Made by a program: the position numbers and the translations under genes. Below are positions 1,131 to 61,847 of a stretch of 64,000 nt of DNA, in pieces; within the stretch, counting starts at the first letter, position 1; every line of letters starts with the position of its first letter. The DNA comes from Mustelus asterias (lineage: Eukaryota), in the NCBI RefSeq assembly GCF_964213995.1, contig NC_135823.1:64356001-64420000 (forward strand). The letters are read 5' to 3'. The notes beneath the pieces were generated by a model that saw only the letters and a list, made by a program, of their open reading frames with translations, ran no database searches and had not been told where the DNA came from.

Positions 1131-1257
1131 CTCACCTGCTGAAGGAGCAGCGCTCTGAAAGCTCGTGATTCCAAATAAACCTGTTGGACTTTAACCTGGT
1201 GTCGTGAGACTTCTTACTGTGCCCACCCCAGTCCAACACCGGCATCTCCCCATCATG
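1131..1257 (+). mobile_element. Penelope-like pLTR fragment with degenerate hammerhead motif (CTGCTGA core)
   Basis: ctcacCTGCTGAaggagcagcgctctGAAAgctcgtga followed by ccaaataaacctgttggactttaacctggtg, matching the termini of the element at 18840-19974. Confidence 0.75.
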
Positions 1258-2989
1258 ATTAACTATGACTAATAGCTAGTGTGCAATGTACGTACACTAC
1301 AAATCAAGAACAGTAGACTCAAGATCCACAAAATTTCCACTTTATCCATAATCTGCAGTTCTTTGATATGCAAAATAAGCATGCTGAAGAATATAATCAT
1401 TTTCCACTGTTCATCTGCAGTGTTCTTGCTTTTCTGCTGGGAACATTAATTTCCAAAAGGCAAAGTTTACGACTTTACAATTAATCTCATGAAAGTGTAC
1501 AGCTGAACAGCTGATAGAGAATAAGGGACCTGGTGTATCAAATGTACAGTCATGCAACAGCTATGAAACTATCTGTGGTCTGGACAAGTGGTCTTTCTTC
1601 TACTATGCATGTATTAGTTTCCCTCCAGAGTTGAAGAAACCATTTACAGCATTACCCGCATCACGCAGTAAGCAAAGTAACCATTCTGTACCTGCAAGAT
1701 TCTATAAACTAGAAAAAGTGACCAGGGGCAAAGAGCAAAGTTTATTTTTACCCTTCTCTTCTATTTTAAGTATGTGTGGGAAACGTGTGGATGAATAGAT
1801 TTTTTTAAATGATCAAAATAAGAAACAATTTGCATTCAAAAATCCATAAATTCCACAAAGGAACATTTAGTCATTATCATAAGCGCAAGAATTAAATATT
1901 TTGTTCTTCATATTTTCCGCGCACGCGCACACACTACAGAAACAGTAGAACAGTTTGCACAAACACCCAGTATCCAGATACCACATGAATCACTGCTTAC
2001 CTCTTCCAGTATGGTATCTCAAGTGCCAAGAGCCAGAGGAACCAGGGAATTTATGCGCTGAGCACATATGCCAGTTCATCACTTAGAGGAGAAACAACCA
2101 CTCAAACTGGGACTGCTTCCAAAATGTTTTTAAGGCTCAACATTAAGGTCAAAAGACCAGTTCAGCAGTTTGCAAGAGTCACTGACTTGATATCTCGCTC
2201 TGTGAAAAGCGAGTACAGCTATATAATATTCTTGACCGCGGAACGCAATGAGCTGTGTTAGTGTTAACAGTTGAGATCAATACGGCTTTATTTACAGGGT
2301 TCCATCTGAGGGATCAGCATTCAGCTCAAGACCCGAATGCTGCCAATCTCTCTCGCTCCCTCTCTCAGGATGTCAAAACAACCAGATAGAACCAATGCCT
2401 AGATTATATAATATAAAACATATCTTAACATCTAAACAGATGGGGGTTATCATTTTGTTCTCTCCTTGAAATGCTTTTAACTCTTTAATATCCAATGCAT
2501 CAAGTAACACACAGGTCCAATTATGCGCAAAATTCTATATACCAACATATAACAAATAGCAGCATGTGAACTGAAAAAATTAATGCAATGCCAGAGTTCC
2601 AATGCCAAGCAGAATCAGACAGCTTCTTGCAATCTGTGGCTTCATCTGACTCCCTCAACTGGGTTACTAGCTGAATTCACTTAAAAATTCCCATCTTCTT
2701 TCATGCGTACCCCATCACCAGTAGCTGCTTATAAGTTTGCAATACATTCAAAGCTCTCCAGTGTAATAACTCATTTTAAACACCCAACAAATCAGAATGC
2801 ACAAAAGAACACTCATTATTCCCTGCTGCTTTTTCTGACCTTGAAATAACCTTGATAGGTTGTTGAGATAATGAGAGAAGCCAAGCAGCAGAAATCCAGA
2901 CAAACTTTCAACAACAGTCTCTTAATTAATCTCAAGACTTATTTTGACCACTTCTCCATTGAGACTACCTAATCAGTGCTATTAAAGGG

Positions 2990-3270
2990 ATAAACTGGGT
3001 TAACATGCAACAACAGCCTTTACATAATGCCTTGAATGTAAAAAATGCAGAACACATCTTCTGAAGTGCGTTCTCCATTCCCAGCTCACTCCTGATGAAA
3101 GAACACAGGGCGGCCCGCAGAAACATTTCAAAAATACTCTGATAGCTGACTTGAATATTAGCTTTGACCTCAACAGCTGGGAAGAATGTGCATTGTACCA
3201 CCCATAATGGCAAGCTCTGCTTCAGGGTCTAGCTGGTTTTGAAGCAGGGTGGATGAAGGAGGTGGAAGGC
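2990..3270 (+). mobile_element. Old RTE-clade LINE C-terminal remnant
   Basis: Translates HLLKCVLHSQLTPDERTQGGPQKHFKNTLIADLNISFDLNSWEECAL, resembling the RTE C-terminal motif RxxGGQxKRFKDxLKxxL...WE. Confidence 0.55.
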
Positions 3271-3294
3271 ATGAGAAGAAAAAAGCTCAAGAAG

Positions 3295-3597
3295 TTTAAA
3301 GTTTATTTATTAGTGTCACAAGTAGACTTACATTAACACTGTAATGAAGTTACCGTGAAAATCCATCCCCTAGTCACCACACTCCAGTGCCTGTTCGGCT
3401 ACACTGAGGGAGAATTTGGCACGGCCAATGCACCTAACCAGCATGTCTTTCAGACTGTGGGAGGAAACCGGAGAACCCGGAGGAAATCCAGTCAGATACG
3501 GCGAGAACATGCAGACAGTGACCCAAGCCAGGAATTGAACCCGGTCTGTGGTTCTGTGAGGCAGTGGTGCTAACCACTGTGACACAATGCCGCCAAG
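3295..3597 (-). mobile_element. tRNA-derived V-SINE (HE1-like), TAATAAATAAACTT-tailed subfamily
   Basis: Minus strand cagtggttagcac..gcctcacag..gggttcaattcc head, V-domain ttctccggtttcctcccacagtc, tail gtgacactaataaataaac. Confidence 0.8.
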
Positions 3598-3733
3598 GTG
3601 TGTAGCCCCTTATCAACCATGGGCTGACCAACTCACTAACAGACAAATGACTGACTGCTGATGGGGAATACGAATTTTGGGGTTTTTTTTGTTCCTTCCT
3701 TAGCCTTTTGCTTTCCCCTTTTCACGTCATTTA

Positions 3734-4495
3734 GAGTCATAGAGGTTTACAGCATGGAAACAGGCCCTTTGGCCCAACTTGTCCATGCCGCCCTTTTTTT
3801 TTAAAACCCCTAAGCTAATCCCAATTGCCCGCATTTGGCCCATATCCCTCTATACCCATCTTACCCATGTAACTATCTAAATGCTTTTTAAAAGACAAAA
3901 TTGTACCCGCCTCTACTACTACCTCTGGCAGCTTGTTCCATACACTCATCACCCTCTGTGAAAGAATTGCCCCTCTGGACACTTTTGTATCTCTCCCCTC
4001 TCACCTTAAACCTATGCCCTCTAGTTTTAGACTCCCCTACCTTTGGGAAAAGATGTTGACTATCTAGCTGATCTGTGCCCCTCATTATTTTATAGACCTC
4101 TATAATATCACCCCTCAGTTTCCGACGCTCCAGAGAAAAAAGTCCCAGTCTATCCAGCCTCTCCTTATAACTCAATCCATCAAGTTCTGGTAGCATCCTC
4201 GGAAATCTTTTCTGCACTCTTTCTAGTTTCATAATATCCTTTCTATAAGAGGGTGACCAGAATTGTACACAGTATTCCAAGCGTGGCCTTACCAATGTCG
4301 TGTACAACTTCAACAAAACATTCCAACTCCTGTATTCAATGTTCTGACCGATGAAACCAAGCATGCCCAATGCCTTCTTCACCACTCTGTCCACCTGTGA
4401 CTCTACTTTCAAGGAGCTATGAACATGTACCCCTTGATCTCTTTGTTCTGTAACTCTCCCCAACGCCCTACCATTAACTGAGTAAGTCCTTACCT
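3734..4495 (-). mobile_element. CR1 LINE 3' fragment
   Basis: ORF 3888..4463 LYTTLVRPRLEYCVQFWSP...LERVQKRF..FSLERRKLRGD..TRGHRFK; 3' tail ctatgactct. Confidence 0.9.
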
Positions 4496-5019
4496 TGCAT
4501 GGACTTCAACCACACCCCCTCCCTGCCTCTGTCTGCTCTCTTTCTCCCCCTCTACTCTAGGACGGCATGGCAAGTGTCTTTCCTTGCTGCAAAGGACCAT
4601 CATTAGATTGGGATGTAGAAAATCACAGTGGTGTGTTCTTCAAATTGGAATTTTAAAAAATATGGATGTCAAGCCAGGGGAAGAGAGACTAAGAAATCTG
4701 ACCAAACGTTGGGTCTTAAAGGAGAAAAATGGGATGAGGCAAAGGAACTTGGCAGAGAATTCTAGAACATGAAGTTGAGTAATTGAAGATGTGACTATCA
4801 ATGATAGTGTGAAGGAGGTTGAAACCAGAGACCAACAGAGACCTGAAGCAAGTTACAAATAGGACATGGCCTTGAAAGAATTCAAACGTGGAGAATAATT
4901 TCAAATTTGATAAATTGTCACACAAGCTGCTGCTGTTGGTCTGCAAGAGTGGGGGTGAGGGATGATGGGCGAAAAGGATTTGGTATGGTTGGGATAAAGG
5001 CAGAAGTTTAGCTAAATTG

Positions 5020-8790: not shown

Positions 8791-9230
8791 AAATTGAAAA
8801 TGCTGTAAAATCTCGGCAGGTCTGAAGCATCTGTGGAGAGAGAAGAGAGCCAGTGTTGCGAGTCTGGATAACCCGTCATCAACTCTAATGAAGAGTCATC
8901 CAGACTCAAAACACTGGCTTGATTATCTCTCATGATGTGGAGATGTCGGCATTGGACTGGGGTGAACACAGTAAGAAGTCTCACAACACCAGGTTAAAGT
9001 CCAACAGGTTTATTTGGTAGCAAATACCATAAGCTTTCGGAGCACTGCTCCTTCGAAGGAGCAGTGCTCCGAAAGCTTATGGTATTTGCTACCAAATAAA
9101 CCTGTTGGACTTTAACCTGGTGTTGTGAGACTTCTTACTTGATTCTCTCTCCACAGATGCTGTCAGACCTACTGAGATTTTCCAGCATTTTCCGTTTTTC
9201 TTTCAGATTCCAGCATCCGCAGTATTTTGC
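8791..9230. mobile_element. Older Penelope-derived inverted-repeat element (family B) interrupted by the 8931-9139 insertion
   Basis: Inverted arms aaaatgctg.aaaatctcggcaggtctga.agcatctgtggagagag / ctctctccacagatgctgtcagacctactgagattttccagcatttt; central degenerate hammerhead-like ctaatgaagagtcatccagactcaaaac. Confidence 0.6.
8931..9139. mobile_element. Palindromic Penelope-like pLTR insertion (family A) containing a perfect 170-bp palindrome at 8970-9139
   Basis: 85-bp arms checked base by base, centre cttc|gaag; flanked by ttgatt(a/c)tctctc near-duplication. Confidence 0.9.
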
Positions 9231-10926: not shown

Positions 10927-11330
10927 AAAAAAAATAAGAATTAACGGGCAGCTCAAAGAAACTCACTGCGATAACAACTGTGGGTTTCCAGATTACGTCA
11001 GTCAGATCGGACGTGTGTGCGACCATCTGTCTAAAAGACAACACTGGCTGGAGCTGGATTATGGTCGAAGCAAACTCGCAGCAACTAAGTAGAGGGAGAA
11101 CGCCGAGCTGGTTTTAATGCAAGGCCCGGAGAACTGGCGAGAGTTTGCACCCCTTTAAGTGAGCGACTGGCTTCTCAAATGAAATAAATTGCAGCCATAA
11201 TAGAGTTTGTCAGTTTGTCTCAAGGTAAGCAGTTACTGGACATTGGGGGGGGGGGGGGGGGGGGGCTAGGGTCGGCTCTATCGCCGTTAGTTTTGAGCCC
11301 CCCTCCCCGGGACGAGAGGAGAGAGCTCAC

Positions 11331-11564
11331 CTTCCGCACTCGCATCAACTCGGGGTAAAAGAACTCGGGGCAACTCTTCTCGCTCGACTCGGTGAGAGCC
11401 AGCGTGTGGCGCGACGTGACGGCCGATATTTGCCCCTTCACCAACAGCACGGCGCCAGCGGAGGCCGCCTCCTCCTCCTCTTCCTCCTGGTCCTCTTTCT
11501 TCTTCTTGAGGAGAGGAGCCGAGACGGGCAGCGTAGTCAGGGACACTCGTCGCGGTTCGGCCAT
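11331..11564 (-). CDS. UBN1: Ubinuclein-1, first coding exon (78 codons, phase-0 donor AAG|gtgagc); rest of gene lies left of the window
   Basis: MAEPRRVSLTTLP...LALTESSEKSCPEFFYPELMRVRK resembles the ubinuclein N-terminus (CPEFFYPEL as in UBN1); head-to-head with GLYR1 as in human 16p13.3. Confidence 0.88.
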
Positions 11565-12051
11565 GTTGCGGCCGGAGCGGGACAGCTCCCCCCCCCCTCT
11601 TCACCTCACTCACTCAGTCAGTCCCGTCTTTTTCTCTCTCTTCCCCCCTTTGTTGCTCCGGTGCTGAGAGCGGGTGGGGGGGAGGAAAGGTGGCGGCGCC
11701 GCCGACAATCGCAAATCCCTTTCAACAGCAACAAAAACAAACCCGACAAACTTCGGCCGCCGCCATCTTGCCGAGCCGCCGCGCATGCGCGCGAACCCGC
11801 GGGTGGGGGAGGGGGGAAAGCTCCTCATTTCCCCTCCCCTCCAGCAGCCGGAATTATTATTTTTTAATTTCTCCCCTCAAAAAATTCTTTCTGCCCCCTC
11901 AGACAGAGGACTAGGGATAGTAAGTCTATAAATAGGCATGAAATAGAAAATAATAATGCGATCGGAGGGTGTTGACCTTTGCCCCGTGGCGGTCACGTGG
12001 GGCGGGGTGGGTGTTGGGCGGGAGGGCGATGGACAAGTTGCTGTGAGCAAG
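11565..12051. promoter_or_regulatory. CpG-rich bidirectional promoter UBN1/GLYR1
   Basis: Start codons are separated by 487 bp and divergent; YY1 motifs 11759-11770 (-) and 12048-12059 (+); NRF1 GCGCATGCGC 11781-11790; E-box GGTCACGTGG 11991-12000; GC box next to it. Confidence 0.8.
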
Positions 12052-18000: not shown

Positions 18001-21000
18001 GAAGTAGGCCATTCGGCCCATCAAGCCTGCACCGACAACAATCCCACCCAGGTCCCACGCCACATATTTACCTGCTAATCCCCTGGCACTAGGGGCAATT
18101 TAGCACAGCCAATCCACCCAACCAGCACATCTTTTGAGTGTGGGAGGAAACTGGTGCACCTGGAGGAAACCCACGCAGACATGGGGAGAATGTGCAAACT
18201 CCACACAGACAGTCACCCGAGGCTGGAATTGAGCCTGGGTCCCTGGTGCTGTGAGGCAGCAGTGCTAATCACTGTGCCACTGTTCCGTCTCAGCCCCAAC
18301 CCCTGGAATTACTTCACTACGTCTCTGCACCTCTCTAACTCGCTTTCCTCCTTGAAGACTTTCCTTTAAAGCCTTTCTCTTTTGACCATCTGAGCTAATC
18401 TCTCCTTTCGCTTGATGTCAAATTTTGTTTTATAATGCTCCTGTGAAGCACCTTGGGATGTTTTACATTTAGTTAGCATCTTCAACATATAGGTTGCTGT
18501 TGTTATGGCCAGTACTGCACGTGGAGTATAAATCATAGTCCTACAGGCCTTTTAGAATGTGTTCTATCTGTATCATGCAGTGGTATCTAGGCTTCATTTT
18601 TAATGGGCAATTAAGTCAAAACGGGTTTACTGCCATGCTGTTACCCAGTTAGTTTGACTATTAATGTGAGGAATGATTATTGTGTGATATGTGTTTGGAA
18701 TGTTTGAGCTTTAAAATTTGAAGAAAAAATAAATTTGGTACCTGGAAAAATCATAGCATTTGCATCACTTATCAATGATTTTTACCAACACAGATCTTGA
18801 ATAATTAATGAGTAAAGGAACTCTGGATATGGTCTTAATACAGTAAGGAGTCTAACAACACCAGGTTAAAGTCCAACAGGTTTATTTGGTAGTAAACGCT
18901 ACCAGATTTTGGAGCGCTGCTCCTTCGTCAGGTGAGTGGGAGATCTGCTAGCAAACAGGGCATATAAAGACACACACTCAGTTTACAGAATAAGGAATAA
19001 TGATTGGAATGTGAGTCTTTACAGCTAATCAAGTCTTAAAGGTACAGACAATGTGAGTGGAGGGAGCATTAAGCACAGGTTAAAGAGATGTGTATTGTCT
19101 CCAGACAGGACAGTTAGTGAGATTTTGCAAGTCCAGGCAAGTTATGGGGGTTACAGATAGTGTGACATGAACCCAAGGTCCCGGTTGAGGCCGTCCTCGT
19201 GTGCAGAACCTGGCTATCTGTCTCTGCTCAGCGTCTCTGCGTTGTCGTGTGTCGTGAAGGCCGCCTTGGAAAACGTTTACCCGAATATCAGAGGCTGAAT
19301 GCCCGTGACCGCTGAAGCGCTCCCCAACAAGAAGAGAACGGTCTTGCTGGGTGATTGTCGAGCGGTGTTCATTCATCCGTTGTCGTAGCGTCTGCATGGT
19401 TTCCCCAATGTAGCATGCCTCGGGACATCCTTTCCTGCAGCGTATCAGGTAGACAATGTTGGCCGAGTTGCAAGAGTGTATACCTGGTGGATGGTGTTCT
19501 CACGTGAGATGATGGCATCCCGTGTCGATGATCCGGCACGTCTTGCAGCGGTTGCTGTGGCAGAGTTGTGTGGTGTCATGGTCACTGTCCTCCTGAAGGC
19601 TGGGTAGTTTGCTGCGGACAATGGTCTGTTTGAGGTTGTGCGGTTGTTTGAAGGCAAGAAGTGGGGGTGTGGGGATGGCCTTGGCGAGATGTTCGTCGTC
19701 TTCAATGACCTGTTGAAAGCTCTGGAGGAGATGTTGTAGCTTCTCCGCTCCGGGGAAGTACTGGACGACGAAGGGTACTCTGTCCACCGTGTCCCGTGTA
19801 AATTGAGTTTGTGTGTTTATATGCCCTGTTTGTTGGCAGATCTCCCACTCACCTGACGAAGGAGCAGCGCTCCGAAAGCTAGTGGTGTTTGCTACCAAAT
19901 AAACCTGTTGGACTTTAACCTGGTGTTGTTAGACTCCTTACTGTGTTTACCCCAGTCCAACGCCGGCATCTCCAGATATGGTCTTAATGACAGGCTATCG
20001 GTCCTGAAGATTGTTTGAGACCAGATTCAGTGTAATTGCACATGGACAGGCAGTTCACATTTTTAAAATATGGGCAGAGATATTTATATTGGAGAGCGGA
20101 TAGGAAGTCTGCACTGATGCAGATTTCTCATTCATACTGATTCTTTCAGTGTGGTGTTGCACGCGAAACAAGTGAGGTGTAGCCTTCAGATGAAATGAGA
20201 TTAGAGGGCAGGAGGATCATGTCTGGGTGCACAGATGTTAGTGTATTCAATCCCAATTTTCATTATATCCATTATAAATTTCTATATTTGTGTGTGTGTA
20301 AGTTTGTCACACGATAATTACATCCATCTGCCATTGGTACTGCTGTTATGCTGACACTAAATGGAGCATGTAATTACAGAATGACAAGTTTGGATGGACA
20401 ATTTCCCTTAAATTAGTATGTGAGAATTTATAATGTGGAAATTTGACAGGAACTATGCCCAAATGCATAATTTTAATATTACTAATTACACCTGGTAAAT
20501 CAGGGCATGTTATTCTCTTGCCTATCTTTGATGTCTTTGTCTGACTTTCTCACCTTTTGTGTCTCCTCTCTCTCGCTCTTTCTCTCCCCCTTCACTCCTC
20601 TTATTTGCTTATACCCACATTTTTGTTTTCTTTGTGGTTGGCTGTTTTCCTTTAGTTGGTATAGTTTGGTATTACACAATGTGCGAGAGCCAATGGCTAT
20701 TGTCTGCCTTTAGGATTGGGGCTGCAGGGAAGATTTGCCCTCCTCCAATTCACTCATGTTCCACCCAGCCTTTCCGTTCATCATGATTTATTTCCCTTTG
20801 ACTCGACCTCTTGTGTTATCTGTTCCCACTGCTGCTCAATTTACCGGCTTCCCTTTTCCCTTCCTGTTTGCTCTTTTTACAATAAAGTACAGGAGAAAGG
20901 AAACTGTTTTTCCAACTCTGTCCCAAGGGTATTAGAAATTAGCGGCTCTGTTTCACAGCTATACGTGATCCGCATTGTCTTTCTGTCAGAATAACACCGA

Positions 21001-24000: not shown

Positions 24001-27000
24001 CAATGACCTTCCCTCTGTCATAAGGTCCGAAGGGGGATGTTGGCCGATGTGCATGTTCAGCACCATTTGCTGCAATCAAGTGGAACTTGCTTCGTAATAA
24101 ATTGCTCACTGACGGTCAGTTAGGATATTGCCAGGGCAACTTGGCTCCTGAGCTCATTGCAGCCTTAGTTCAAACATAGGCAAATGTGCTGAACCACGGA
24201 GGCGAGAGTGACTGCCCTTGATATCAAGATTGCGTTTGATTGAGTATGGCATCAAGGAATCTGAGCAAAACTGGAGTCAATGGGAATCAGGGAGAAAACT
24301 CTCTGCTGGCTGGAGTCATACCGTCACATAGGTGGTGGTTTTTGGAGGTCAGTCATTTCAGCTCCAGGACATCACTGCAGGTGTTCTTCGGGACTGTCGT
24401 CGGCTCAACTCCTCAGCTGCTTCATCAAAGACCTTCCTTCCATCGTAAGGTCAGAAATGGGGAAGTTCTCAGATTACACAATGTTCAGTAACATTCACGA
24501 TTCATCAGATGCTGAAACAATCCATGTCCAAATGAAGTCCACGTCCAAATACAACAAACCCTGGACAATATCCAGGCCTGGGCTGACAACTGGCAAGTAA
24601 CATTCATAGTAAGAAGTTTAACAACACCAGGTTAAAGTCCAACAGGTTTATTTGGTAGCAAAAGCCACACAAGCTTTCGAGGCTCTGAGCCCCTTCTTCA
24701 GGTCATTCATGCCACACAAGTGTCAGAAAATTGCCATTTCCAACAAGGGAATCTAAACATTGCCGCTTGACACTCTGTGGCATTGCCATCACTGAATTCC
24801 CCACTATCAACATCCTGTGTGTTACCATTGACTAGCAACTGAACTGGGTTAGCAATTTAAATACTGTAGCTACAGGAGCAGGTCAGGGGCTAAGAATTCT
24901 GTGGTGAGTAACTCCCCTCCTGACTCCCCAAAGCCTGTCCATCTGCAAAGCACAAGTCAGGAGTGTGATGGAATATTCTCCCCTGGTCTGGATGAGTGCA
25001 GTTCCAACAACCCTCAAATGATTGACACTATCCAGGACAAATCAGCCCACTTGATTGACATCCTTTCCACAAACATTCATGACCTCCACCACACTAGCAG
25101 CAGTGTATACTTACTGTGAGATGCACTACAGGATCTCGCCAAGGCTCTTTAGACAGCACCTTCCAAACCCATGACCATTACCTTCGAGAAGGACGAGGGC
25201 AGCATATGCACGGGGAGCACCACGACCTAGAGATTCCCGTCCAAACCATTGGACGGGAATCCAATTCTGTACAGCTCTTTGAGGGTTCGCAAAAGTATGT
25301 TTCTATGTTGTGTAGTGAAAAATGTGCCTTCAACATCAGTTTTTCTCTGGTCCACTGATATAACCAACCTGCTTTTCCCTGAATCATTGGCACTAAAAGG
25401 TTTAAAAATAGAACGTACTAGATGGCTTACTTGCTGGAATCTTTAGCTGCATTCTCTGCTGCTTTTGTTGAGGCTTGATATGGAGGATTAGAACAGCTTT
25501 ACAGTTTAGGTTCAAAAAGACCAGGGATAAATGTTTTCAAATCTGAATTCCCTGTGATCTCTAATTATAACGCGCACACTCCTTTTGGGAGTTGAAAATC
25601 TTCGCAATACTAATCTCATTGGGTTTTTAATTTGGCTGTCAGTCATTTTGTAATAGCAATTGGCTATAGCACCAGCTACAGCAAGTGATGACACCCTTCC
25701 TAAAAGGATGATTTACTTGGACAGTAAATGATAAACTTCCACTCAGTATGACTTGTCATCTTCATTTATTGTGTATTGTTTCTACAGGAAGGAGAATTGT
25801 AAACTACTTGACTGACTACTAAACAGGGTCCATACGGAAACTAGAAAGATCAGGGGTAGAAAGAACTTAGTACACTCAAATCTTGCATGAATTCAGAAAA
25901 CCTTTTAACTTCCAGGAAAACAGTGGCTGAATTTACCAACATTGTTTAAAATTTATTTATTAGTCACAAGTAGGCTTGCATTAATACTGCAATGAAGTTA
26001 CTGTGAAAATCCCTTAGTCGCCACACTCTGGCACAATGAGGGAGAATTTGGCACGGCCGATGCACCGAACCAGCATGTCTTTTGGGAGGAAACCGGAGGA
26101 AAGCCACTGGGTGAATGTCCATGACCCAAGCCGGGAATCGAACCCAGGTCCCTGGCGCTGTGAGGCAGCAGTACTGAAGAGAACGGCAAAATATAGTATT
26201 TCGTTCATCGTTCTCGGGCACTTTGGCTTTTGAAAATCAAGTTGCATTCTACCTAACTAGTTTCATCTTCTGTTTGATGCTGAAACCAGCAATGTTAGCT
26301 ATGCATGATTAAATTGGCATAATTTATAGTGTAGAGTACTATGCTAGTTAGAACTTGCCTTGAATGTTAAATTGAATGATCAGTTGAATAACTTCTTAAG
26401 GGTTTTTGTTAATAGGAACTCCTAACTTGTGGGTGGACTGAGTGCTTGTCATGTTTGAATCACAACTGAGACAGTGAATATTTAAATGGTGCTTTGTGTG
26501 TCCTCGTGTAGAAAAGTAGTGCAATGGATAGAGAATTTAGCTTTAGCGCTGTCTGGTATAACAGAATGAGAGGCTAATTGTTTGCTTCATGTATACAATG
26601 TATGTATTGTAATTGTCACTTTCAGATCTCCGATGGAAAAGGGGGTGTTTCAAACTTAGGTTCTTTCTTGAGAGATCCTTTGGAGGACAATTGTGCTAGT
26701 CACTCCAATATAGAGAATCCCTACCGTGCAGAAGGAGGCCATTCGGCCCATCGAGCCTGCACCGACAGAAGTCCCACCAAAGATCTATCCCCGTAACCCC
26801 ACGTATTTACCCTGCTAACCCCCCTTACACAAAGGGGCAATTCACCATGAGAGAAAATGCTGGAAAGCCATGGCCAATCAATCTAACCCCCATGTCTTTG
26901 GATTGCGGGAGGTAACTGGAGCACCCAGAGAAAACCCACACAGACACGGGGAGATCATGCAGACTTCACAAGTTGCCCAAGGCTGGAATTGAACCCGGAT

Positions 27001-42000: not shown

Positions 42001-45000
42001 TGTAGATTCTATGAACTGAACAAACTCTGGTTATGCTGCCGATGTGACAACCGGGATTGAACCAAAAATTGGGTGTGCAATACCATATAAATCAAATGTC
42101 TGTTTTGCTTTCAATACTGCTTCATTCCTGTTCAAAAAGTCAGGCCCATTCCATTGGCATCAAGGCTGAACTCACAAATGTATTAAGCCCCACTCTCGTA
42201 GCTCTCTGACACAGCAATTTGGAACACCAGTTTCCTGTGAAAGTACCCTTTTGAAAGGAATGTATGTGGTTTGTTTTTGAAGTGGGAAAATTTATCAAAT
42301 GCCTCTTCGTTTTGTGGCAGTGCGACCTTTTTCTCCAGGAAGGGGCACGTTTAGGACGGACACCAGCGGAGGTGGTTTCTACGTGTGATATCACACTCTC
42401 TTGCATTTCTGACCCAAAGGCAGCTAAAGACGTAAGTGCATCTACTGTTTCTTAGCCTGATTGGCTGAGCGGCAATGAACCATAATGTTAGCTCTCTTAA
42501 TATTCTTAAGTAATGGGAGGAATGTTAATATTTACATCTCGACGTGTTTTCAGTTAACCTTGTTTATAAAAAAAAAAAGCTCTAACGATCTGAGTATTTG
42601 CAGCAAGTTTTGTTTTGTGCTTTCAGCTGGTTCTGGGTCCCAGTGGAGTGCTGCAAGGGATTCGACCAGGCAAGTGTTATGTTGACATGTCTACAGTGGA
42701 TCCCGAGACATCCACAGAAATCTCACAGGTAATAAGCTGAGTAGATTTCACAGAGCATAAAACTTACTCTTGTCTTGAAGATTGGGCTTGTACCAATTTT
42801 GAGGGGGTGGGGGGGAAACTAATGTCATTCAAAGCAAATTTGTGAAATGTGCCTCTTTCCGTGGTCTGGCTGCATTGCAAATTACTGGCACCACTGGTCC
42901 AAGTCGAGGTCTCTTTATAAATGTGGTGGGCTGCTTCAATCAACTGGCAAATCCTGTAGTTAGACGATAATTACCACCTTCTTTCTGAAATATAGAATTT
43001 AGTTACAGCTTTGTTTCATTTATCTGGCCTGGCCTGTGCTTCCCTTCTAATGCTTTGCTTCAGTCGTTCATCTGAAAGTATTTGTGTTGGAGGGGGGAGT
43101 GGGCATTGGCTAGACTGCTAACTTGTGGATGAGACTAATATAGTCAGGATTTGATCCCTGCTGCGGCTGAGGTAGAGTTGGCACCTGTCTCCTTGCCCTA
43201 GCTGCAATTTTTTAAAAATTAGATGTGGGGATGTCAAGGACCTGCCATTGGACAGAGAAGTGAAGACTATCCGTCTAAAGACATTTCTTTGCTATCCTTG
43301 TATTGTTTCCCAGCCTGCTCTTCTGGAGCTTTTAGACCATAAGACATAGGAGCAGAATTAGGCCACTCGGCCCATCGAGTCTGCTCCGTCATCCAATCAT
43401 GGCTGATTTTTTTCCTCATCCCCATTTTCCTGCCTTTTCCCCATAACCCCTGATCCCCTTATCAGTCAAGATCCAATCTATCTCTGTCTTAAAGACACTC
43501 AATGACCTGGCCTCCACAGCCTTCTGCGGCAAAGAGTTCCACAGATTCACCACTCTCTGGCTGAAGAAATTCCTCCTCATCTCTGTTTTAAAGGATCGTC
43601 CCTTCAACCTGAGGTTGTGCCCTCTGGCTAAAGGTCTTCCTACTTATTTCACTGTTAGCACCAAGCTTTTATTTCCGTGTTCTATGGCCACTCCTGAAAT
43701 GTTTGCCTTTCTGTTTTCTCACACAAGCCTTGTGCTCCTGTTCCTTCCTTCCAGTCTGGTCTGAATGTTTCTTTTTCACTAGTGTCCGGTCAATTTCTTG
43801 TGACAAATCATTGTATAGAAAACGTAGAGTTTGGCTTTCCCAATAGCTCGATGGGCAAATGTCATCAAAGTGTGATACTGAGCCATTGCAATGGAGAATG
43901 TTCAAGGTTTGGTCCTGAAGTGTGCTGAATTAGCTGAGCTCAGTTGATGCAGCAGTGCAAGTGGGACAAAAGGCCTCAATCTCCCTGCGATCGGGAGGCT
44001 AAACATTAACTACAATGGCCAATCCTGATCATTACCAATCACTCCCCTTCAACAGTGCACAGTGTGGGCTTGGCCAAAAAAAACCCAGGATTGACAGGAT
44101 GCAGAGCCGAGTCCTTTTAAGATGCAAAAATGTGGAAGATTCTGTGCAATGTTAGGATAGATACATTGAGTTTTTAACCATGGATTTAATTAATTTTAGT
44201 GTGTATGATTGGCAAGCGGTGGGTGACTACACCAGGGATTTTCTTGGCACAAAATGGAAGTGTTTCTGAAAGAATTGAGTGCTTTTAAAGTTTATTTATT
44301 AGTCACAAATAAGCTTGCCTTAACACTGCAATGAAGGCCATAATGTGGAGATGCTGGTGTTGGACTGGGGTGGGCACAGTAAGAAGTCGCTCAACGTCAG
44401 GCTAAAGTCCAACAGGTTTATTTGGTGTCACTAGCTTTTGGAGCGCTGCTCTCACCTGATGAAGGAGCCATGCTCCGAAAGCTCGTGATACCAAATAAAT
44501 CTGTTGGACTTTAGCCTTGGTGTTGAGACTTTTTACTGTGCCCACTGCAATGAAGTTACTGTGAAAATCCCCTAGCCGCCACACTCTGGCTCCTGTTCGG
44601 GTACACGGAGGGTGAATTTAGCATGGTCAATGCACCCTACCAGCATGTCTTTCAGACTGTGGGAGGAAACCGGCGCACCCGGAGGAAATCCACGCAGACA
44701 CGGGGAGAACATGCAGACTCCGCACAGATAGTGACCCAAGCCGGGAATCGAACCCTGGCACTGTGAGGCAGCACTGCTAACCACTGTGTCACCGTGCCAC
44801 TCCCTGTTGTTTTAAAAATCTCTTGGGTCACCTTGGACCTCATTGGTGATGGTTTCAAAGCTTTCCTGACCCGATCTAACATTCCAACTTGTGCCCCGCT
44901 TGGTGCCATGGGCCAGTTTTCTGATTCCAGTGTTGTGTATGACGCTTCGTTAAGATCTTGAGGTTGGCGGACTTTACCTGGGCCGCTCTCTTTACAAACT

Positions 45001-48000
45001 CCACAGCCAGTAGCCGGGACTGATCTGTAATTGTTACTCCGTTGCATAGGTGATCACTTCCAGGGGGGGGCGCTTTCTCGAAGCACCAGTCTCTGGGAAT
45101 CGGCAACTGTCGGAAAATGGAATGCTGGTGATCCTTGCTGCTGGAGATGAGGCATTATTTGATGATTGTAGCAGCTGTTTTCAGGCCATGGGGAAAAAGT
45201 CTTTCTATTTGGGTAGGTTTGCGTTTACAGAATCCTCCAAACCCTTTCTCTCCCTATATATGAATTGTCTTGATAGATTTGTTTACTGTGCTGGAAAACT
45301 CAATGTCTCAAAGTGTTATTTCGGGAGGAAAGGCCAAATCGTACTTTGTGATTAAAATTAAACATCATAGAATCCCTACAGTGCAGAAAGAGCCATTCGG
45401 CCCATCGAGTCTGCACTGACTTTCAGACAGGATACCACCCAGGCCTTTCCTATAACCCTACATATTTGCCCCGCTAATCCCGCTGACCTACAAATCCTGG
45501 GACTCTTAAGGGACAATTTAGCATGACTAATCCACCTAACCTGCACAAAAGGTCATGAATGTAGCCCAATCCATCGCACAAACCAGCCTCCCATCCACTG
45601 ACTCTGTCTACACTTCCCGCTGCCTAGGCAAAGCAGCCAGCATAATTAAGGACCGCATGCACCCCGGACATTCTCTCTTCCACCTTCTTCCATCGGGAAA
45701 AAGATACAAAAGTCTGAGGTCACCAACCGACTCAAGAACAGCTTCTTCCCTGTTGCCGTCAGACTTTTGAATGGACCTACCACGCATTAAGTTGATCTTT
45801 CTCTACACCCTAGCTATGACTGTAACACTACATTCTGCACTCTCTCCTTTCCTTCTCTACGAACGGTATGTTTTGTCTGCATAGCGAGGAAGAAACAATA
45901 CTTTTCACTATGTTAATACATGTGACAATAAATCAAATCAAACATCTTTGGACTGTGGGAAGAAACCGGAGCACCCGGAGGAAACCCACGCAGACACGAG
46001 GAGAATGTGTAAATTCCACACAGACAGTGACCCAAGCTGGGAATCAAACCAGGTCCCTGGAGCTGTGAAGCAACAGTGCTAACCACTGTGCTACCGTGCC
46101 GCCCGCACATGTTAATACATGTGACACTAATAAATCAAGTCAAACATCTTTGGACTATGGGAGGAAACCGGAGCACCCGGAGGAAACCCACACAGACACG
46201 GGGAGAACGTGCAAACTACACCCAGGCGGTGACCCAAGCCAGGAATCGAACCGGGTCCCTGGCGCTGAGGCAGCAGCGCTAACCACTGTGCTATCGTGCC
46301 GCCCCTCCAAAACATGAATTCTACCACTTCAAAACTCTGTTCAAATGGATCCCTTTTTATTATTGCTGTGTAAATTTTTTATACTGTATATGCTGCTAAG
46401 CTAACTAATGGAACAGCCTAAAAGCAACTGAGCGTGACTCTCTCCCCAGAGAGGAGGTGACTTGCACACATGAAACAACCTGATCAACAAAGCATTCTGA
46501 CTGTATCCTCCCCTTTTTCAAGCTTGCTAATGTATTCCCTACACTGCTAAATAATAACCTGTGCTTTTTTAAAAAATCGACCTGAAGAGCGATTAGATTT
46601 GATCCTTTTATGAGATCCCTAATGAGGAGACATCCCATCCTTCCAGTGCTTAATTTGCAGAACTAATCTGTCTAATTGAAAGAAAAATCTTAAATAAAAG
46701 CTGATCTGGCAGCACCGGTGAGGTGGGAAACGGGGGTTCAAGTTTCAGCTTGATGAGCTTTGCCCAAGGGTCATAAACCTGAAATGTGAACTCTGTCCCT
46801 CTCTCCGCAGATGCTGCCAGACAGGAGTATTTCCACATTTTGTGTTTACGTTGTATAACCGAGGGTGTGAGGCCATCTCACAAGTCTGAGCATGTGTGAA
46901 GTTAATTCGATGTGCACTTTCTGCTTTCCGGACTAAGTGGAGCACTATATGGGCCTGCTTACATTATTGTTTCCTTTCCAGGTGAGGTGGGTAATGCGTC
47001 GAAGATGATGCTGATTGTAAATATGATCCTGGGCAGTTTCATGGCTTCTGTTGCGGAAGGATTCACGTTGGCTAAGATAGCCAGCCAGTCCCAAGAAGTG
47101 CTGCTTTACATCCTGAGTCAGGGACCTTTGGCAAGTGCTTTTCTGGACCAGAAGTGCCAAAGTAACTAACTTTCTTTCTAATTTCTTTTGAGTGGAATTG
47201 GTTGATGCCGAGGATGCTGATTGCCTGAATTTAGTTAATTAATCCTAGATTCATAGAAACAGATTAATTTCCAGTTAGCCATCCAAATGCAAATACTGCC
47301 AATGGAAGCACATTGGGGATTAGTTTAAACGTGGATCCATTTGTAAGCAACATAACATTTGATACTGGGCATTAATTTTTTAGGATCTGTAGTATTTGAG
47401 GACCTGCATCATTGATGATGGGTATATTCTTTGCTTTCTGTAGTTATATTGTTCAGGGCCATTTTGCAAAGTTATTTCAAACTTGCTTCAAATGTCCTTT
47501 GGTGCAGTATCCAGGGATGCCATAAGTTCATAGAATCCCTACAGTACGGAAGGAGGCTATTTGGCCCATTGAGCCTGCACTGACCACAATCCCACCCTAT
47601 CCCCATATATTTACCCTGCTAATCCCCTGAAACTAGGGTCAATTTAGCATGGCCAATCAACCTAACCCGCACATCTTTGGACTGTGGGAGGAAACCGGAG
47701 CACCCGGAGGAAACCCGTGCAGACTCCACGTTGTGCAAAAAACTGTTTGTTTGATAAACATCTTTGAAAGCTGGGAACGTTAGTGCGGTGCACAGTTGAT
47801 TCCTGTCGAGATATATATTTAATTGCCTGATTCAGTTGCAATCCATGACACGTGAGTGGTGGCAGTGGCAGGGTGTTGTAGCTGGGCTGGCAATCCAGAG
47901 ACCCAGGGTAATGGTCTGGGGACCCAGGTTCAAATCTCACCATGGCAGATAAAAATCAGGAATTAAAATTCCAATTGTAGAATTCCTACAGTGCAGAAGG

Positions 48001-51000
48001 AGGCCACTTGGCCTACCGAGCCTACCACCACTGACAATCCCACCCAGGCCCAATCCCTGTAACCCCACGCATTTACCCTATTTATCCTCCTGACACTAAG
48101 GGGCATTTAGCATGGCCAATCAATCTAACCTGCACATCTTTGGACAGTGGGAGGAAACCGGAGCAAACCCACGCAGACGCGGGATTGTCTTAAAGACGCA
48201 TCTGGTTCTCTGATGTCCTTTTAGCAAGGGAATCTGCCAACTTTACCTAGTCTGGCTGACGTGTGACTCCAGATCCACAGAAAAGTGGTTGACTCTCCAC
48301 ACAAAAAAAGCCCTCTGAATTGCTCTCGAGGGCAATACAGGCTTGAAGGTGACTTCCGATTGACACAGTTACTGTTCATGCTTGAAGAATAGAATTCTTA
48401 GTGTCAGGAATCCAGACAGAACTTTAATTCTCCTTTGGTGTCAGGAGGATCAGCAGGGTAAATGCGTGGGGTTACAAGGATTGGGGTCTGGGTGGGCTTG
48501 TCAGTGGTGCAGGCTCAGTGGGCCAAATGGCGGCCTCCTGCACTGTAGGGATTCTACAATTGGAATTTTAATTGGGTGTACTGGGATATTACTTAGCTGT
48601 GTCACAAGCCAGGTAAGCTTTTTGGTTGGCTGTAAGAATGAAGAGGAGTCTGAAAGTGACTGCTTGCAAAAGAAAATCCAGTATTTTTTTAAAGATCTGA
48701 CCAGAATATTTACAGATTTCTACAGAACTTTAATCTTGCTCAACCCAAAATTGTAATTAGTTTAATGTTTTTTCTGATGTTCTAAGCTATGTAATGATGA
48801 ATGACCAGCAAACCCATTAACTCTGATTCCATTTGTGATTCTCTCTCTCTCAGATATTTTACAGGGAAACTTCAAGCCCGACTTCTTGTTGAAACACATA
48901 CAGAAGGACATCAGGTTAGCCATTGCTATGGGTGATTCTGTCAATCATTCAACTCCAATGGCTGCTGCGGCCAATGAAGTAAGTTTTGAGCATGTTATGC
49001 CCCTAATAAATCACAAATATTGGACGAGTTCCTTGTATCGGTGGGATGGCGTGGGGTACCTGTTTGCGGTCCTAATCTGTTGAACTGTTCAGAGTGCCAC
49101 ATAATGAAGAACAGCATTCCTAGAGGTTCCTGATTGTTGGGGGAATAATGTGCAGATGGAATGGTGTATGTCGTTTCAGTCGACAGTGGGACCTACCACA
49201 GCTTATTGTTGTCCTAATCACAGTGCTAGAAAGCTGTGGGTGTGTATGTTTGCCTATTTATACAAAGAAAATTACATCACAGGACCAGTCCAAAGATGTG
49301 TGGGTTAGGTTGATTGGCTATGTTAAAATTGCCCCTTAGTGTCCTGGGATGCGAAGATGAGAGGGATTAGCGGGTAAAATATGTAGGGATATGGGGGTAG
49401 GGCCTGGGTGGGATTGTGGTCGGTGCAGACTCGATAGGCCGAATGGCCTCTTTCTGTACTGTTGGGTTTCTATGATTTCTAGGCCCTTCGGCCCTCCAAG
49501 CCTGCACCAACCATGCTGCCCAACTGAACTAAACCCCCTACCCTTCTGGGTCCGTATCCCTCTATTCCCATCCTATTCGTGTATTTGTCAAGACACCCTT
49601 TAAAAGTCCACTACCTCCCCTGGCAGCGAGTTCCAGGCACCCACCACCCTCCATGGGGAAAAAAAAACTTGCTAAACGTGTAAAAACACGTGTAATGTGT
49701 TAAAACTGTCACATGTTATGCACTACTTCAATCCTGCTATCAAAACTCAGTCTATTAGAGAAGCAGTACATTTAATAAATATCTAACAAAATATTTAAGC
49801 TTGCCTAATCCATGCATCTACTTTGACATGTTGGAACAGAGGAATTATTTAAAATTTTAGGTCATTATTGTCAAACAGCAGGGTTTTTAAAAATAGTTGC
49901 CAAGTCATTTAAAAGATTCTGAAATCGATGAATGCCATATCAAATGTTCAATATTTCTCATCTTCTACACTCCTTATTCAGTTTCGCCTTTGCTTTATCT
50001 TTCAAACTTTAACTCGGGTTTTATGACAAATTTATTTCATTGCTAGTTAAACTGACACAAGACAGTGCTTTGTTCAATCACGATGTGGAGATGCCGGCGT
50101 TGGACTAGGTTGGGCACAGTAAGAAGTCTCTCAACACCAGGTTAAAGTGCAGCAGGTTTATTTGGAACCACGAGCTTTCGGAGCGCTGCCCCTTCATCAG
50201 GTGAATGGATTCCTCTCACTCCTCCACTCACCTGATGCAGGAGCAGCGCTCCGAAAGCTCATGATTCCAAATAAACTTGTCAGACTTTAACCTGATGTTT
50301 GTGAGACTTGCGCCATCATATTTGAGGAATTCTGTTGTAGAAGCGTGATTGGTTGCTTGTCAATTCTGTGTTCATAGTTTAGGTTAAATTATTGTGCTCT
50401 TCATGTAAAAGTTCTCCCAAGGTTTTTTCATTCTTTTGATTTCTTGCTGATTTTAGTAATTGAAGAGTTGAGAGCCCAAATCTACCTGTGTTATAGTGCA
50501 TTCATGGTTTGGCTGGTGTTCTCCACCGATGTATCCACAATAGCTTTGAATGTTACCTTAAATTTTCTGTTGGTTAAGAGATGCCCTGAGCATAGAAGGT
50601 GAGAGGTGAAAAAATTAACTTTTAGTGCCATGACGATGGCAGTATTGTCCACTACAAGCATTGTAAAATGTAATATTTGAAATGGCCGCATAGACTTAAA
50701 TTAGTTGTATCAATAATTTGGCAATAATCTGATTAGGAACTATGTTCCTCTTACCGTTCCAAAGCTTTGCAGTGCGAATACTGCAATATAAAATCTAGTA
50801 ATGGTAAATCTACTTGACGATCTAGCTTGATTTGATTTATTATTGTCACATGTATTAACATACAGTGAAAAGTATTGTTTCTTGCGCGCTATACAGACAA
50901 AGCATACCGTTCATAGAAAAGGAAAGGAGCGAGTGCAGAATGTAGTGTTACAGTCATAGCTAGGGTGTAGAGAAAGATCAACTTAATGCAAGGTAGGTCC

Positions 51001-58308: not shown

Positions 58309-58344
58309 ATGGCGGCGGCGAGCGATGCGGAGAGAGGCGTGTTG
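58309..58344 (+). CDS. ROGDI: ROGDI first coding exon (MAAASDAERGVL); exon 2 not found in the window
   Basis: gggATGG start, phase-0 donor TTG|gtgaga; resembles human ...MAATAAERAVL exon 1; ROGDI follows GLYR1 in the same orientation in human. Confidence 0.72.
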
Positions 58345-58439
58345 GTGAGACACAGACACCGACACCCAGAGACACACACACACACACAGACCCTCAACCC
58401 GGGGAGAGAGAGCCCACTCTGCCAGGGAGACCAGAACCG

Positions 58440-59601
58440 GGGGGGGAGGAGGAGGCTGCGGATACGGGGGGGGGAGGAGGGGGCTGCGGATACGGGGGGG
58501 GGAGGAGGGGGCTGCGGATACGGGGGGGGGAGGAGGGGGCTGCGGATACGGGGGGGGGAGGAGGGGGCTGCGGATACGGGGGGGGGAGGAGGGGGCTGCG
58601 GATACGGGGGGGGGAGGAGGGGGCTGCGGATACGGGGGGGGAGGAGGGGGCTGCGGATACGGGGGGGGGAGGAGGGGGCTGCGGATACGGGGGGGGAGGA
58701 GGGGGCTGCGGATACGGGGGGGAGGAGGGGGCTGCGGATACGGGGGGGGGAGGAGGGGGCTGCGGATACGGGGGGGGGAGGAGGGGGCTGCGGATACGGG
58801 GGGGGGAGGAGGGGGCTGCGGATACGGGGGGGGGAGGAGGGGGCTGCGGATACGGGGGGGGAGGAGGGGGCTGCGGATACGGGGGGGAGGAGGGGGCTGC
58901 GGATACGGGGGGGGAGGAGGGGGCTGCGGATACGGGGGGGGAGGAGGGGGCTGCGGATACGGGGGGGGAGTGGAGGAGGGGGCTGCGGATACGGGGGGGA
59001 GGAGGGGGCTGCGGATACGGGGGGGAGGAGGGGGCTGCGGATACGGGGGGGGGAGGAGGGGGCTGCGGATACGGGGGGAGGAGGAGGGGGCTGCGGATAC
59101 GGGGGGGGAGGAGGGGGCTGCGGATACGGAGGGGGGGAGGGGGGAGGAGGGGGCTGCGGATACGGGGGGGAGGAGGGGGCTGCGGATACGGGGGGGGGGG
59201 GAGGAGGGGGCTGCGGATACGGGGGAGGAGGGGGCTGCGGATACGGGGGGGGAGGAGGGGGCTGCGGATACGGGGGGGAGGAGGGGGCTGCGGATACGGG
59301 GGGGAGGAGGGGGCTGCGGATACGGGGGGGGGAGTGGAGGAGGGGGCTGCGGATACGGGGGGGAGTGGAGGAGGGGGCTGCGGATACGGGGGGGGGAGTG
59401 GAGGAGGGGGCTGCAGATACGGGGGGGGAGTGGAGGAGGGGGCTGCGGATACGGGGGGGAGGAGGGGGCTGCGGATATGGGGGGGAGGGGAGGAGGGGGC
59501 TGCGGATACGGGGGAGGAGGAGGCTGCGGATACGGGGGGAGGGGGCTGCGGATATGGGGGGGGAGGGGGCTGCGGATACGGGGGGGAGGGGGCTGCGGAT
59601 A
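58440..59601 (+). repeat. G-rich minisatellite, unit ~GGAGGAGGGGGCTGCGGATAC(G)n (27-30 bp), roughly 40 copies
   Basis: Directly visible; degenerate gcggatacc copies continue to ~60800. Confidence 0.97.
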
Positions 59602-60242
59602 CCTGGGTGAAGAGGGGCTGTGGATGGATGGCCGCAGGTGAAGGATTGACTGCGGATACCTGGAGGGGGATGAGGGTCTACAGGTTCCCAAGGGGGCTGG
59701 GGCGGGGGGGCTTTGTATACCCATTGCAGGAGCTGCAGCTATCTGGAAAGTAAAAGGTGGTGATGAAGGAATGGCGGGGCAGGGGGGCGGGGTCAGATAA
59801 TGCAGTTTGGGTACTAGCGATGGAGACAAAGCTGGGATGGTGGATATCGGTGATCTGGATACCTTGGGGACAGATATCCATGGGTGGGTATGCATTCTAA
59901 ATGGTATCTGAGGGGTGGGGGGGGAATGCAGGGAGTCCAGGTTCTGAGAGGGTGGATAACAGGGGGGGGGGGGGGGGGGGGTAATGGAGTTTGGGTTCTT
60001 GAAGGCAGACGTGACAGCTGATTCCTGGTGCGGTGGATACCAGGGTTTTGGTACCTGGAAGTCAGATACCTAGCAGGCTGGATACCTGAGGGTCATATAC
60101 AGGCGAGAGCAGCAGATAATGGGGGTCCTGGTAGTGGGGAGGATATGATGTGGAGATGCCGGCGTTGGACTGGGGTAAACACAGTAAGAAGTTTAACAAC
60201 ACCAGGTTAAAGTCCAACAGGTTTATTTGGTAGCAAAAGCCA

Positions 60243-60280
60243 CACAAGCTTTCGGAGCTGCAAGCCCCTTCTTCAGGTGA
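60243..60280 (-). ncRNA. Minimal hammerhead ribozyme motif, intact core
   Basis: tcac-CTGAAGA-a-ggggc(ttgca)gctcc-GAAA-gc-TT-gtg. Confidence 0.7.
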
Positions 60281-60580
60281 GTGGGAATTCTGTTCACAAA
60301 CAGGGCATATAAAGACACAAACTCAATTTACATGAATAATGGTTGGAATGCGAATACTTACAACTAATCAAGTCTTTAAGAAACAAAACAATGTGAGTGG
60401 AGAGAGCATCAAGACAGGCTAAAAAGATGTCTGGAGACAATACACACCTTTTTAGCCTGTCTTGATGCTCTCTCCACTCACATTGTTTTGTTTCTTAAAG
60501 ACTTGATTAGTTGTAAGTATTCGCATTCCAACCATTATTCATGTGTCTTTATATGCCCTGTTTGTGAACAGAATTCCCAC

Positions 60581-60618
60581 TCACCTGAAGAAGGGGCTTG
60601 CAGCTCCGAAAGCTTGTG
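60581..60618 (+). ncRNA. Minimal hammerhead ribozyme motif, intact core, predicted cleavage after U60615
   Basis: tcac-CTGAAGA-a-ggggc(ttgca)gctcc-GAAA-gc-TT-gtg. Confidence 0.7.
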
Positions 60619-61847
60619 TGGCTTTTGCTACCAAATAAACCTGTTGGACTTTAACCTGGTGTTGTTAAACTTCTTAGTGGGGAGGATAGTCAGAGGAGCC
60701 AATACTTGATGCGGATACCGGCAGAGTGACAGGAATGGGGTGGTGGGTACTGGGGGTGAGGGCAGATACTGCAGGTGGTGGTTACCAGGAGTCGGGGTAC
60801 CAGGAGCAATTGCATCTTCAGTTTCCCAACAGCAAAGCTTGTGGTTTTAGAAGGAGTGAAGAAATATATATATTAACATTTGATAGGTGTGCTCCAATAT
60901 GTGAGAAATGGATGTTAAAAGCATTTTGTTTTGTCATGTTTTCAGTCGTGGTATTTCTATATAGATATACTTGCGCTGTGGACCTTATTTTGACAGGACG
61001 CAGAATGAAATTGTGCAGATATCATGGCTTAACTAAGCTTAAGGAAACATCATGGTTCAAAATCCTGAAACTCCCTCCCTCACCATACCTTTGCTATATC
61101 GATTGAGTGATTCAAGAAGGCAGCTCAGCACCACCTTCTCGAGGGCAATTAGGGATGGGCAATAAATGCTGGCCTCCCAAGAATGAATGAAAAATAATTT
61201 GACAATGTACCTTTAAAATGTGTTTCACACGCATTATACTGGAGATGTTATTTCTGTTTTCCGTTGCTGTGTTTAGGAGATGTATGGCACTGTCTATGAA
61301 GTCATCAGACATTGTGAAAAGCTTTCGGTTGTTAATTTGAGCTGGCCAGACTTAAAAACAAACTGTTCTGGAAAGGCAGATTCTTTTCAGCCCCATTCAT
61401 TGTAGCTCAACAGGCAACACCAAGCTATTTAATATTGGCCTTATTGATTCTCTGGAGAGCTAGTGCTGACGTGATGGGCCCAATGGCATCCTGTGCTGTA
61501 ATGATTCAGTGATCTTCCCGTGAGTGTCTGAGCTCGTTTGATTGCAAGTTGCTCATGAATTTTGGCGTTTTACTTCCACAAGGATTCCCTGTTCTTCTAA
61601 TTTGATTTGTAGAGGGGCTGATTTATCTCAGCTGCTCCCCCTGTGTGATTTAAATAGTTGTAGGAAAACCATGTAATTCCTTTTTTCCAGTGAAATGAAT
61701 TGTAGATGGACTATTGGGCTGAATTAGTAAGTGGGCTTCAATAACAAAAAAAAATGTAAGTAGTAAATACACTTTCACTGCAAGCGCAACAGTTTTTTAA
61801 TAAGTAGAATGAGAGTAAAGCAGTAATTTGTACAAATATTTTTAATC

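Follow-up and report, generated by a model that had tools for sequence, protein, structure and literature searches.

Among the metazoan Penelope-like elements (PLEs), investigators have described minimal type I hammerhead ribozymes that share a CUGANGA core, an extra nucleotide before stem II and a G10.1-C11.1 pair, that lack any helix III beyond a palindromic 15.2-16.2, that fall into many sequence families, and that are mentioned as occurring in opposite-strand pairs 100-700 bp apart (PMC4209133); the function of PLE hammerheads has been called unclear (PMC8557442). A 64-kb stretch of the genome of the shark Mustelus asterias (contig NC_135823.1, positions 64,356,001 to 64,420,000; referred to here, at its full length, as the window) holds seven insertions with such motifs, which a sequence-only reading had assigned to a mostly non-coding, retrozyme-like family. 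Very probably, these insertions are instead the 5'-truncated 3' ends of an abundant autonomous PLE, and the hammerhead, which lies in the parent's pseudo-long terminal repeat (pseudo-LTR), likely acts on the parent's RNA and not on the truncated stubs. They are not a separate retrozyme family; the class is known and its anatomy is published, and the fresher point is an excess of copies that start at the predicted cut site.

The window motifs correspond to the described minimal hammerheads in all of the respects listed above, and the earlier recognition of a minimal type I hammerhead with a palindromic AGCU stem III was right. They differ in having a stem II of 5 bp and, in the young subfamily, a stem I that reads as extendable to approximately 6 bp with a bulge, and cartilaginous fish are not among the hosts mentioned in the cited passages (PMC4209133). 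Constructs of the published motifs displayed no cleavage as monomers and low cleavage as dimers or trimers (PMC4209133), and cleavage of an anole element was observed only with the element's own protein (PMC11167929), findings that run counter to the efficient dimeric self-cleavage that had been assumed for PLEs.

For PLEs in general, an inverted copy, a one-sided tail of 30-40 bp and a target duplication have been described (PMC8557442, PMC3846280); in the C-terminal-endonuclease elements of the Neptune/Nematis type, rotifer target duplications span 8-10 bp, compared with 12-13 bp here, where the family also reaches approximately 280,000 arms and no (TA)n target bias was noticed (PMC8557442, PMC3846280). 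The Poseidon element of Anolis (PAc) resembles the present family in that two copy ends, approximately 36 nt apart and roughly 60-100 nt downstream of the hammerhead cut, define the tail; the anole protein nicks and extends both strands, two internal reverse transcription start sites bound the tail, and such priming on both strands would explain the palindromes seen here (PMC11167929). The two systems differ in that the PAc open reading frame (ORF) starts inside stem II and includes the tail, whereas the ORF here starts after the tail, and in that no PAc reads ended at the cut, whereas genomic copies of one subfamily here pile up at it (PMC11167929). Animal non-LTR retrozymes likewise share a type I hammerhead, a relationship to PLE pseudo-LTRs and short non-coding copies with the present family, but are built of 150-450-bp units repeated head to tail and classically have canonical hammerheads and circular RNAs, whereas the window insertions are dispersed head-to-head truncations with minimal motifs (PMC7229834; 10.64898/2026.07.22.740005). 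Short head-to-tail tandem repeats are absent among the seven insertions, no genome-wide search for such arrays having been run.

The parent element was traced in the window's own 3.68-Gb genome from a GIY-YIG endonuclease fragment at 19080-19499 (minus strand), which scores 21.7 bits, below the Pfam cut-off of 22.6, and for which 153,397 first-look candidates were returned. Following this fragment led to an 823-aa frame that combines reverse transcriptase (RT) and GIY-YIG, and the N-terminus of that frame, used in turn as a query, led to many uninterrupted 912-aa frames among 150 scored matches. At twenty loci with 912-aa frames a unit of 3,021 bp was found, often in tandem (this period recurs in loci L151, L152, L157 and others), with one hammerhead per unit on the coding strand. 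The ORF of locus L157 comprises 892 aa, its ATG lying directly after the tail and 99 nt past the predicted cut, and its translation carries a CX4CXXC linker ahead of the endonuclease. A CX2-5CXXC linker between RT and endonuclease marks the Neptune/Nematis type (PMC8557442), and the parent would belong to that type by this feature. Within the parent ORF, Pfam recovers RVT_1 (E 8.5e-10) and, below its cut-off, GIY-YIG (E 0.001; both at locus L041); GIY-YIG is not among the listed Pfam matches of the L157 ORF, the Atlas neighbours of the parent ORF carry RVT_1 and in some cases also GIY-YIG, and a PDB sequence search with the 892-aa ORF returned 0 matches. A single ORF containing RT plus GIY-YIG at its C-terminal end, the arrangement of the endonuclease-bearing PLEs, is present, and every arm in the window matches the 3' end of the unit, over its final 100-1000 nt, which bears out the Penelope origin first proposed for them.

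In 60 evenly placed 10-kb stretches of the genome, the family accounts for 11,958 of 600,000 bases (approximately 2%) and contributes 45 anchor-defined arms, corresponding to approximately 276,000 arms genome-wide (95% range 201,000-369,000), in keeping with the high copy number first suspected. Exact motif occurrences number 49,966 for the young subfamily and 49,395 for a second subfamily. The uninterrupted 912-aa frames and 3,021-bp tandems support recent activity of one branch, to which the proposal of a recently mobile family applies; the seven window copies belong to several subfamilies of different ages.

Several additional observations concern the parent loci. Two of them (L156 and L169) join young, intact 912-aa frames to pseudo-LTRs of the second hammerhead subfamily, such that either both subfamilies have intact ORFs or they recombine. 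At locus L153, three tandem units with a 2,991-bp period each carry the same shortened 566-aa frame, from either one template copied round more than once or a later local duplication. Tandem units inside one locus differ at 3-4 of 1,530 nt, versus 15 of 1,513 between loci in the single valid between-locus comparison. Seven copies on contig C15, at 80-84 Mb (L124-L126, L132 and L137-L139), have an identical 5' junction at the ORF start, and are a segmental cluster rather than separate insertions.

Within the window, a motif scan and self-BLAST placed all seven insertions where they had first been noticed, and resolved them into 12 arms, arranged as five head-to-head inverted pairs (at 8931, 18837, 44337, 50079 and 60146) and two single arms (at 1131 and 24608). 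The individual features are as follows.

1130..1258, plus strand: lone 5'-truncated arm from an old PLE subfamily, tail present; its start lies 35 nt upstream of the predicted cut, a change at A6 breaks the core, and no target duplication was seen.
8931..9139: perfect pair, head to head; each arm starts 25 nt upstream of the cut and has no CUGA, and the left one bears the tail; imperfect target duplication from 8918 and 9138.
18837..19977: head-to-head pair with unequal arms; the long one (minus strand, unit nt 2023-2990) has G12A and no tail, and the short one (plus strand) bears the tail; a 14-bp target duplication lies at 18826 and 19975.
19080..19499, minus strand: frameshifted GIY-YIG endonuclease fragment of the PLE ORF.
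19850..19884, plus strand: intact minimal type I hammerhead motif, predicted to be buried in the arm-arm hairpin of a read-through RNA.
24608..24703, minus strand: lone arm of the young subfamily, tail absent; the core is intact and stem I is shortened on its 5' strand; 7-bp duplication at 24601 and 24704.
44337..44542: pair from an old subfamily, head to head; the truncated left arm bears G12A and the tail, and a 13-bp target duplication lies at 44324 and 44543.
44453..44487, plus strand: intact minimal hammerhead motif.
50079..50309: pair from an old subfamily, head to head; the left arm (minus) is intact and bears the tail, and A9 is altered in the right arm; target duplication looked for and not found.
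50169..50203, minus strand: intact minimal hammerhead motif.
60146..60674: young pair, head to head, with 99% complementarity between the arms; the left arm bears the tail, and a 14-bp target duplication lies at 60132 and 60675.
60243..60279, minus strand: intact minimal hammerhead motif, young subfamily.
60582..60618, plus strand: intact minimal hammerhead motif of the young subfamily; the predicted read-through fold pairs it fully with the opposite arm.

The window is rich in this family, its 12 arms comparing with a mean of 4.8 per 64 kb. Identity of the arms to a young unit ranges from approximately 79 to 98%, indicating copies of several ages and subfamilies, of which 24608 and 60146 are the young members. 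A target duplication accompanies five of the seven insertions, that at 8931 being imperfect and that at 24608 just 7 bp. The pattern that had been considered common to the insertions is intact (CUGANGA, GAAA and UH) in 6 of the 12 arms, 5 of which also retain a 3-bp stem I; the remaining six arms are truncated or core-mutated, and the absence of CTGA first reported at 8931 proved to apply to both of its arms, each of which stops before CUGA. The copy at 18837-19977, which had been regarded as resembling the mobilizing parent, is itself broken and 5'-truncated.

That the motifs are not a product of chance is indicated by a descriptor for minimal type I hammerheads that requires pairing in stems I and II, which matched five times in the window and 0 times in each of 100 Markov-1 simulations; an Rfam scan of the window gave no hammerhead match, just sub-threshold miRNA-hairpin matches that arise from the palindromes. 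Among 175 full-core arms, the cleavage base H is T in 104, A in 67, C in 3 and G in 1, and N7 is C in 83, A in 77, T in 13 and G in 2. The rule that H is never G holds for subfamilies and is broken by a single copy, just as the broader proposal that variation obeys hammerhead rules stands for subfamilies, in their pairing and covariation, while individual copies include ordinary decay. Over 19 recurrent hammerhead types (each present in at least two loci), pairing holds in 99.3% of stem cells, and both sides change in 3 of 8 pairs, one of them in stem I (its first pair, C-G to U-A) and the other two in stem II. A covariation score of 0.284 was equalled in 0 of 500 shuffles and reached at most 0.094 in slid controls; the pair count itself was reached in 21 of 500. 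The sequences possess both the core and stems I and II of a minimal type I hammerhead and its compensatory covariation, and the maintenance of pairing over the 19 types indicates that the active lineages kept the fold. Short palindromes of 6 bp lie just before stem I in the pseudo-LTRs, approximately 46-41 nt upstream of the cut (for example at 60572-60577 and 19840-19845), at the same place and with different sequences in three subfamilies and in no other subfamily.

The hammerheads of these insertions had been considered probably dimeric. The two motifs of each window palindrome sit, however, on opposite strands and so are unable to dimerize in cis; the predicted read-through RNA of 60146 folds at -440.9 kcal/mol with its motif fully paired to the other arm, and because paired arms form a single long hairpin in which the motif is hidden, no dimer is provided by the palindrome. 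No two same-strand copies near enough to dimerize occur in the window insertions, same-strand motif pairs being confined to tandem parents, where they are 3,021 nt apart. In a predicted two-strand fold of the motif, the lowest-energy structure is not the catalytic dimer, a result with no bearing on activity.

The structure of the copies was further characterized using 76 inverted pairs. These come from the window, from the random stretches, from 20 stretches selected because they held motif matches, and from the search loci other than L171-L280, with one locus entered twice and one local duplicate included. The tail is present on exactly one arm in 69 of these pairs, on both arms in 4 and on neither in 3. 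Flanks share an exact word of at least 10 nt in 44 of 75 testable pairs, 34 of them with 12-13 nt, versus 1 of 75 mismatched controls, and the hammerhead string of one arm is identical to that of the other in 24 of 37 pairs, where 2000 shuffles gave a mean of 2.0 and a maximum of 8. The inverted arm, one-sided tail and 12-13-bp target duplications are textbook PLE anatomy, and the marks of membership (a tandem pseudo-LTR, an inverted 5'-truncated copy with one tail, and a target-site duplication) are all present. An apparent truncation hot spot at unit position 2938, suggested by BLAST starts, was rejected as an alignment artefact of subfamily indels.

Copy starts at the predicted cut were counted with a requirement for three mismatches directly upstream, giving a capture chance near 0.42. 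In the young subfamily (49,966 arms), 1,148 arms start at the predicted cut (position 0) versus 343 at -2, and from that capture chance cut-start arms represent approximately 5% of the subfamily; the +1 control is dominated by a variant with a 2-nt deletion, to which 89 of the first 100 listed belong, leaving a rough range of approximately 165-450 true starts. A partner arm that overruns the cut by more than 3 nt is present in 1 of 36 cut-start pairs (L223 and L235 being dropped, as their best matches lay 321 and 443 nt away) and in 8 of 36 pairs with -2 starts (p 0.03). The tail is borne by the cut-start arm in 27 cases versus 9, compared with 14 versus 20 for -2 starts (p 0.007). Both comparisons used the first 40 listed loci per set, and since some -2 loci are the same insertions as cut-start loci, the two sets are not independent. 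Of 50 distinct cut-start loci, two are directly preceded by ORF-start sequence. In these (L194 and L222) the preceding sequence comes from within ORF nt 1-92, which would fit an enzyme that jumped from a 5' end to a site downstream or that copied a small circle, and a contig joint on L152 (run X2, 5084 to 4896) displays the same arrangement. Three contig sets of other organisms, which may derive from RNA, span the stretch but do not resolve RNA ends. The excess is real as a count in one subfamily, and is a possible record of cleavage.

Taken with the behavior of the anole element, these observations suggest the following pathway. The element's enzyme would nick both strands approximately 13 bp apart, by analogy with anole Poseidon (PMC11167929); reverse transcription might then be primed from each nick at two internal RNA sites, approximately 63 and 99 nt past the cut; and the two unfinished cDNAs would be joined head to head to yield the palindrome. 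The hammerhead, meanwhile, may cut only part of the RNA pool, either with the help of protein or as a dimer across a tandem transcript; most templates would remain uncut, and only a small share of them, amounting to a few percent in the young subfamily, would be cut and leave arms that start at the cut.

Several points weigh against this reading of the copies as the product of an element whose hammerhead acts on its own RNA. In the second subfamily (49,395 arms), 306 arms start at 0, 71 at +2 and 331 at -2, with capture chances of approximately 0.28, 0.28 and 0.42, such that position 0 is not clearly above -2 and no sharp peak is present. By an eye count of the first 100 listed cut-start arms, a single favoured hairpin junction accounts for 32, and the base at -1 is G in 39; the sequence at the junction or a capped end may underlie these features. 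Of 52 ORF-start copies, none starts at the upstream cut (27 pass it, 20 of them by more than 100 nt), from which cut RNA can be at most a minor template. The shuffle test of covariation ignores the relatedness of subfamilies, the double-priming step would be transferred from another clade by analogy, and arms of clearly different loop types occur in 1 of 37 pairs, showing that a single-template origin is not absolute.

The first four of these points lead to the strongest alternative, in which no cutting occurs in vivo and the cut-site starts have their origin either in the chemistry of the junctions (joins at a favoured hairpin or at microhomology) or in transcription that begins, with a cap, at that base, an explanation that we regard as possible but hold at somewhat under an even chance. 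Anole RNA-seq, in which no reads ended at the cut, and the dispensability of cleavage in vitro (PMC11167929) agree with it as well. It must nevertheless accommodate the approximately 780 arms that remain, versus 343, once the hairpin class is removed; partner arms that seldom pass the cut, as a hard template end predicts; the two loci with preceding ORF-start sequence, which resemble run-off at a 5' end followed by a jump; and stems that covary across subfamilies. It would also require that a start site exactly on the scissile bond be a coincidence.

A second alternative concerns the palindromes, which might form by snap-back, one cDNA folding on itself and being extended along its own strand. 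Such self-priming has been proposed for PLE palindromes (PMC3846280), and the frequent identity of hammerhead type on the two arms, their often near-equal lengths and their hairpin-like junctions would all follow from it. Snap-back requires, however, that the longer arm carry the tail, and the tail-bearing arm is the shorter in 23 pairs (including 18837 and 60146 in the window) and the longer in 15; because the shorter arm so often has the tail, plain snap-back fits less well, and is judged unlikely.

Copy ends also accumulate at the front edge of the hammerhead. Of 123 uncensored arms, 28 start between -45 and -30 from the cut, a density of 1.75 per nt versus 0.45 at -99 to -60 and 0.09 further upstream, as do 5 of 27 near-full-length copies that pass the cut; such starts are most marked in the old subfamily of 1131, 44337 and 50079. 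A TATA-like word lies 26-30 nt upstream in several subfamilies and is missing from the second large one; Drosophila Penelope is described as having a TATA-less internal promoter (PMC2377424). The pile-up may come either from a transcription start site or from structure, between which the partners of long arms, at 2 of 7 versus 22 of 58, offer few cases. That the germ line records a few percent of young copies made from hammerhead-cut RNA, and that the front-edge pile-up marks the transcription start, is a proposition on which we find the evidence evenly poised.

The weakest alternative, that the stubs are non-autonomous, retrozyme- or SINE (short interspersed element)-like units, made as short hammerhead RNAs from copies bearing pseudo-LTRs and mobilized in trans by the PLE protein, could draw on those front-edge starts and TATA-like words, on the ability of PLE pseudo-LTRs to mobilize sequence in trans (PMC3846280) and on the derivation of animal retrozymes from pseudo-LTRs (preprint 10.64898/2026.07.22.740005), but is very improbable given that the stubs are copies of the parent's own 3' end whose arm lengths are continuous up to full length, that the seven insertions include no short tandem arrays, that breakpoints and target duplications vary by insertion, that stubs starting at -35 occur without the TATA-like word, and that half of the window arms are core-dead.

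The remainder of the window provides the setting of the insertions. Exons on the plus strand at 40825-41367 and 45050-45352 encode an NAD_binding_2 domain (Pfam), and we take them to be GLYR1-like; the start of 11223-11600 (minus strand), where Pfam gave no match, presumably resembles UBN1. Given such host exons, several insertions would be intronic, and the two NAD_binding_2 exons flank the intact plus-strand motif at 44453, which is in the sense orientation. The 3' part of a CR1-like LINE (long interspersed element) is present as two 836-bp arms, 100% complementary and 1,556 nt apart (29948-30783 and 32340-33175), which are either a very young inverted duplication or an assembly artefact. 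A long, G-rich, low-complexity tandem array occupies 58400-59600, with open frames in all six phases.

By themselves the seven insertions are ordinary, their class and anatomy having been published; a literature search, conducted outside Repbase, Dfam and paper supplements, encountered no description of this PLE family or of a cut-site footprint. A family that combines approximately 50,000 near-identical young ends with many intact ORFs and an excess of cut-site starts offers a cheap in vivo read-out of what PLE hammerheads do, as well as good material for the biochemistry of both-strand priming. If the germ line does record hammerhead cutting and transcription starts in this way, the approximately 280,000 copy ends in this genome would map the 5' ends of PLE RNA together with its two priming sites, and would provide a direct handle on the role of PLE hammerheads.

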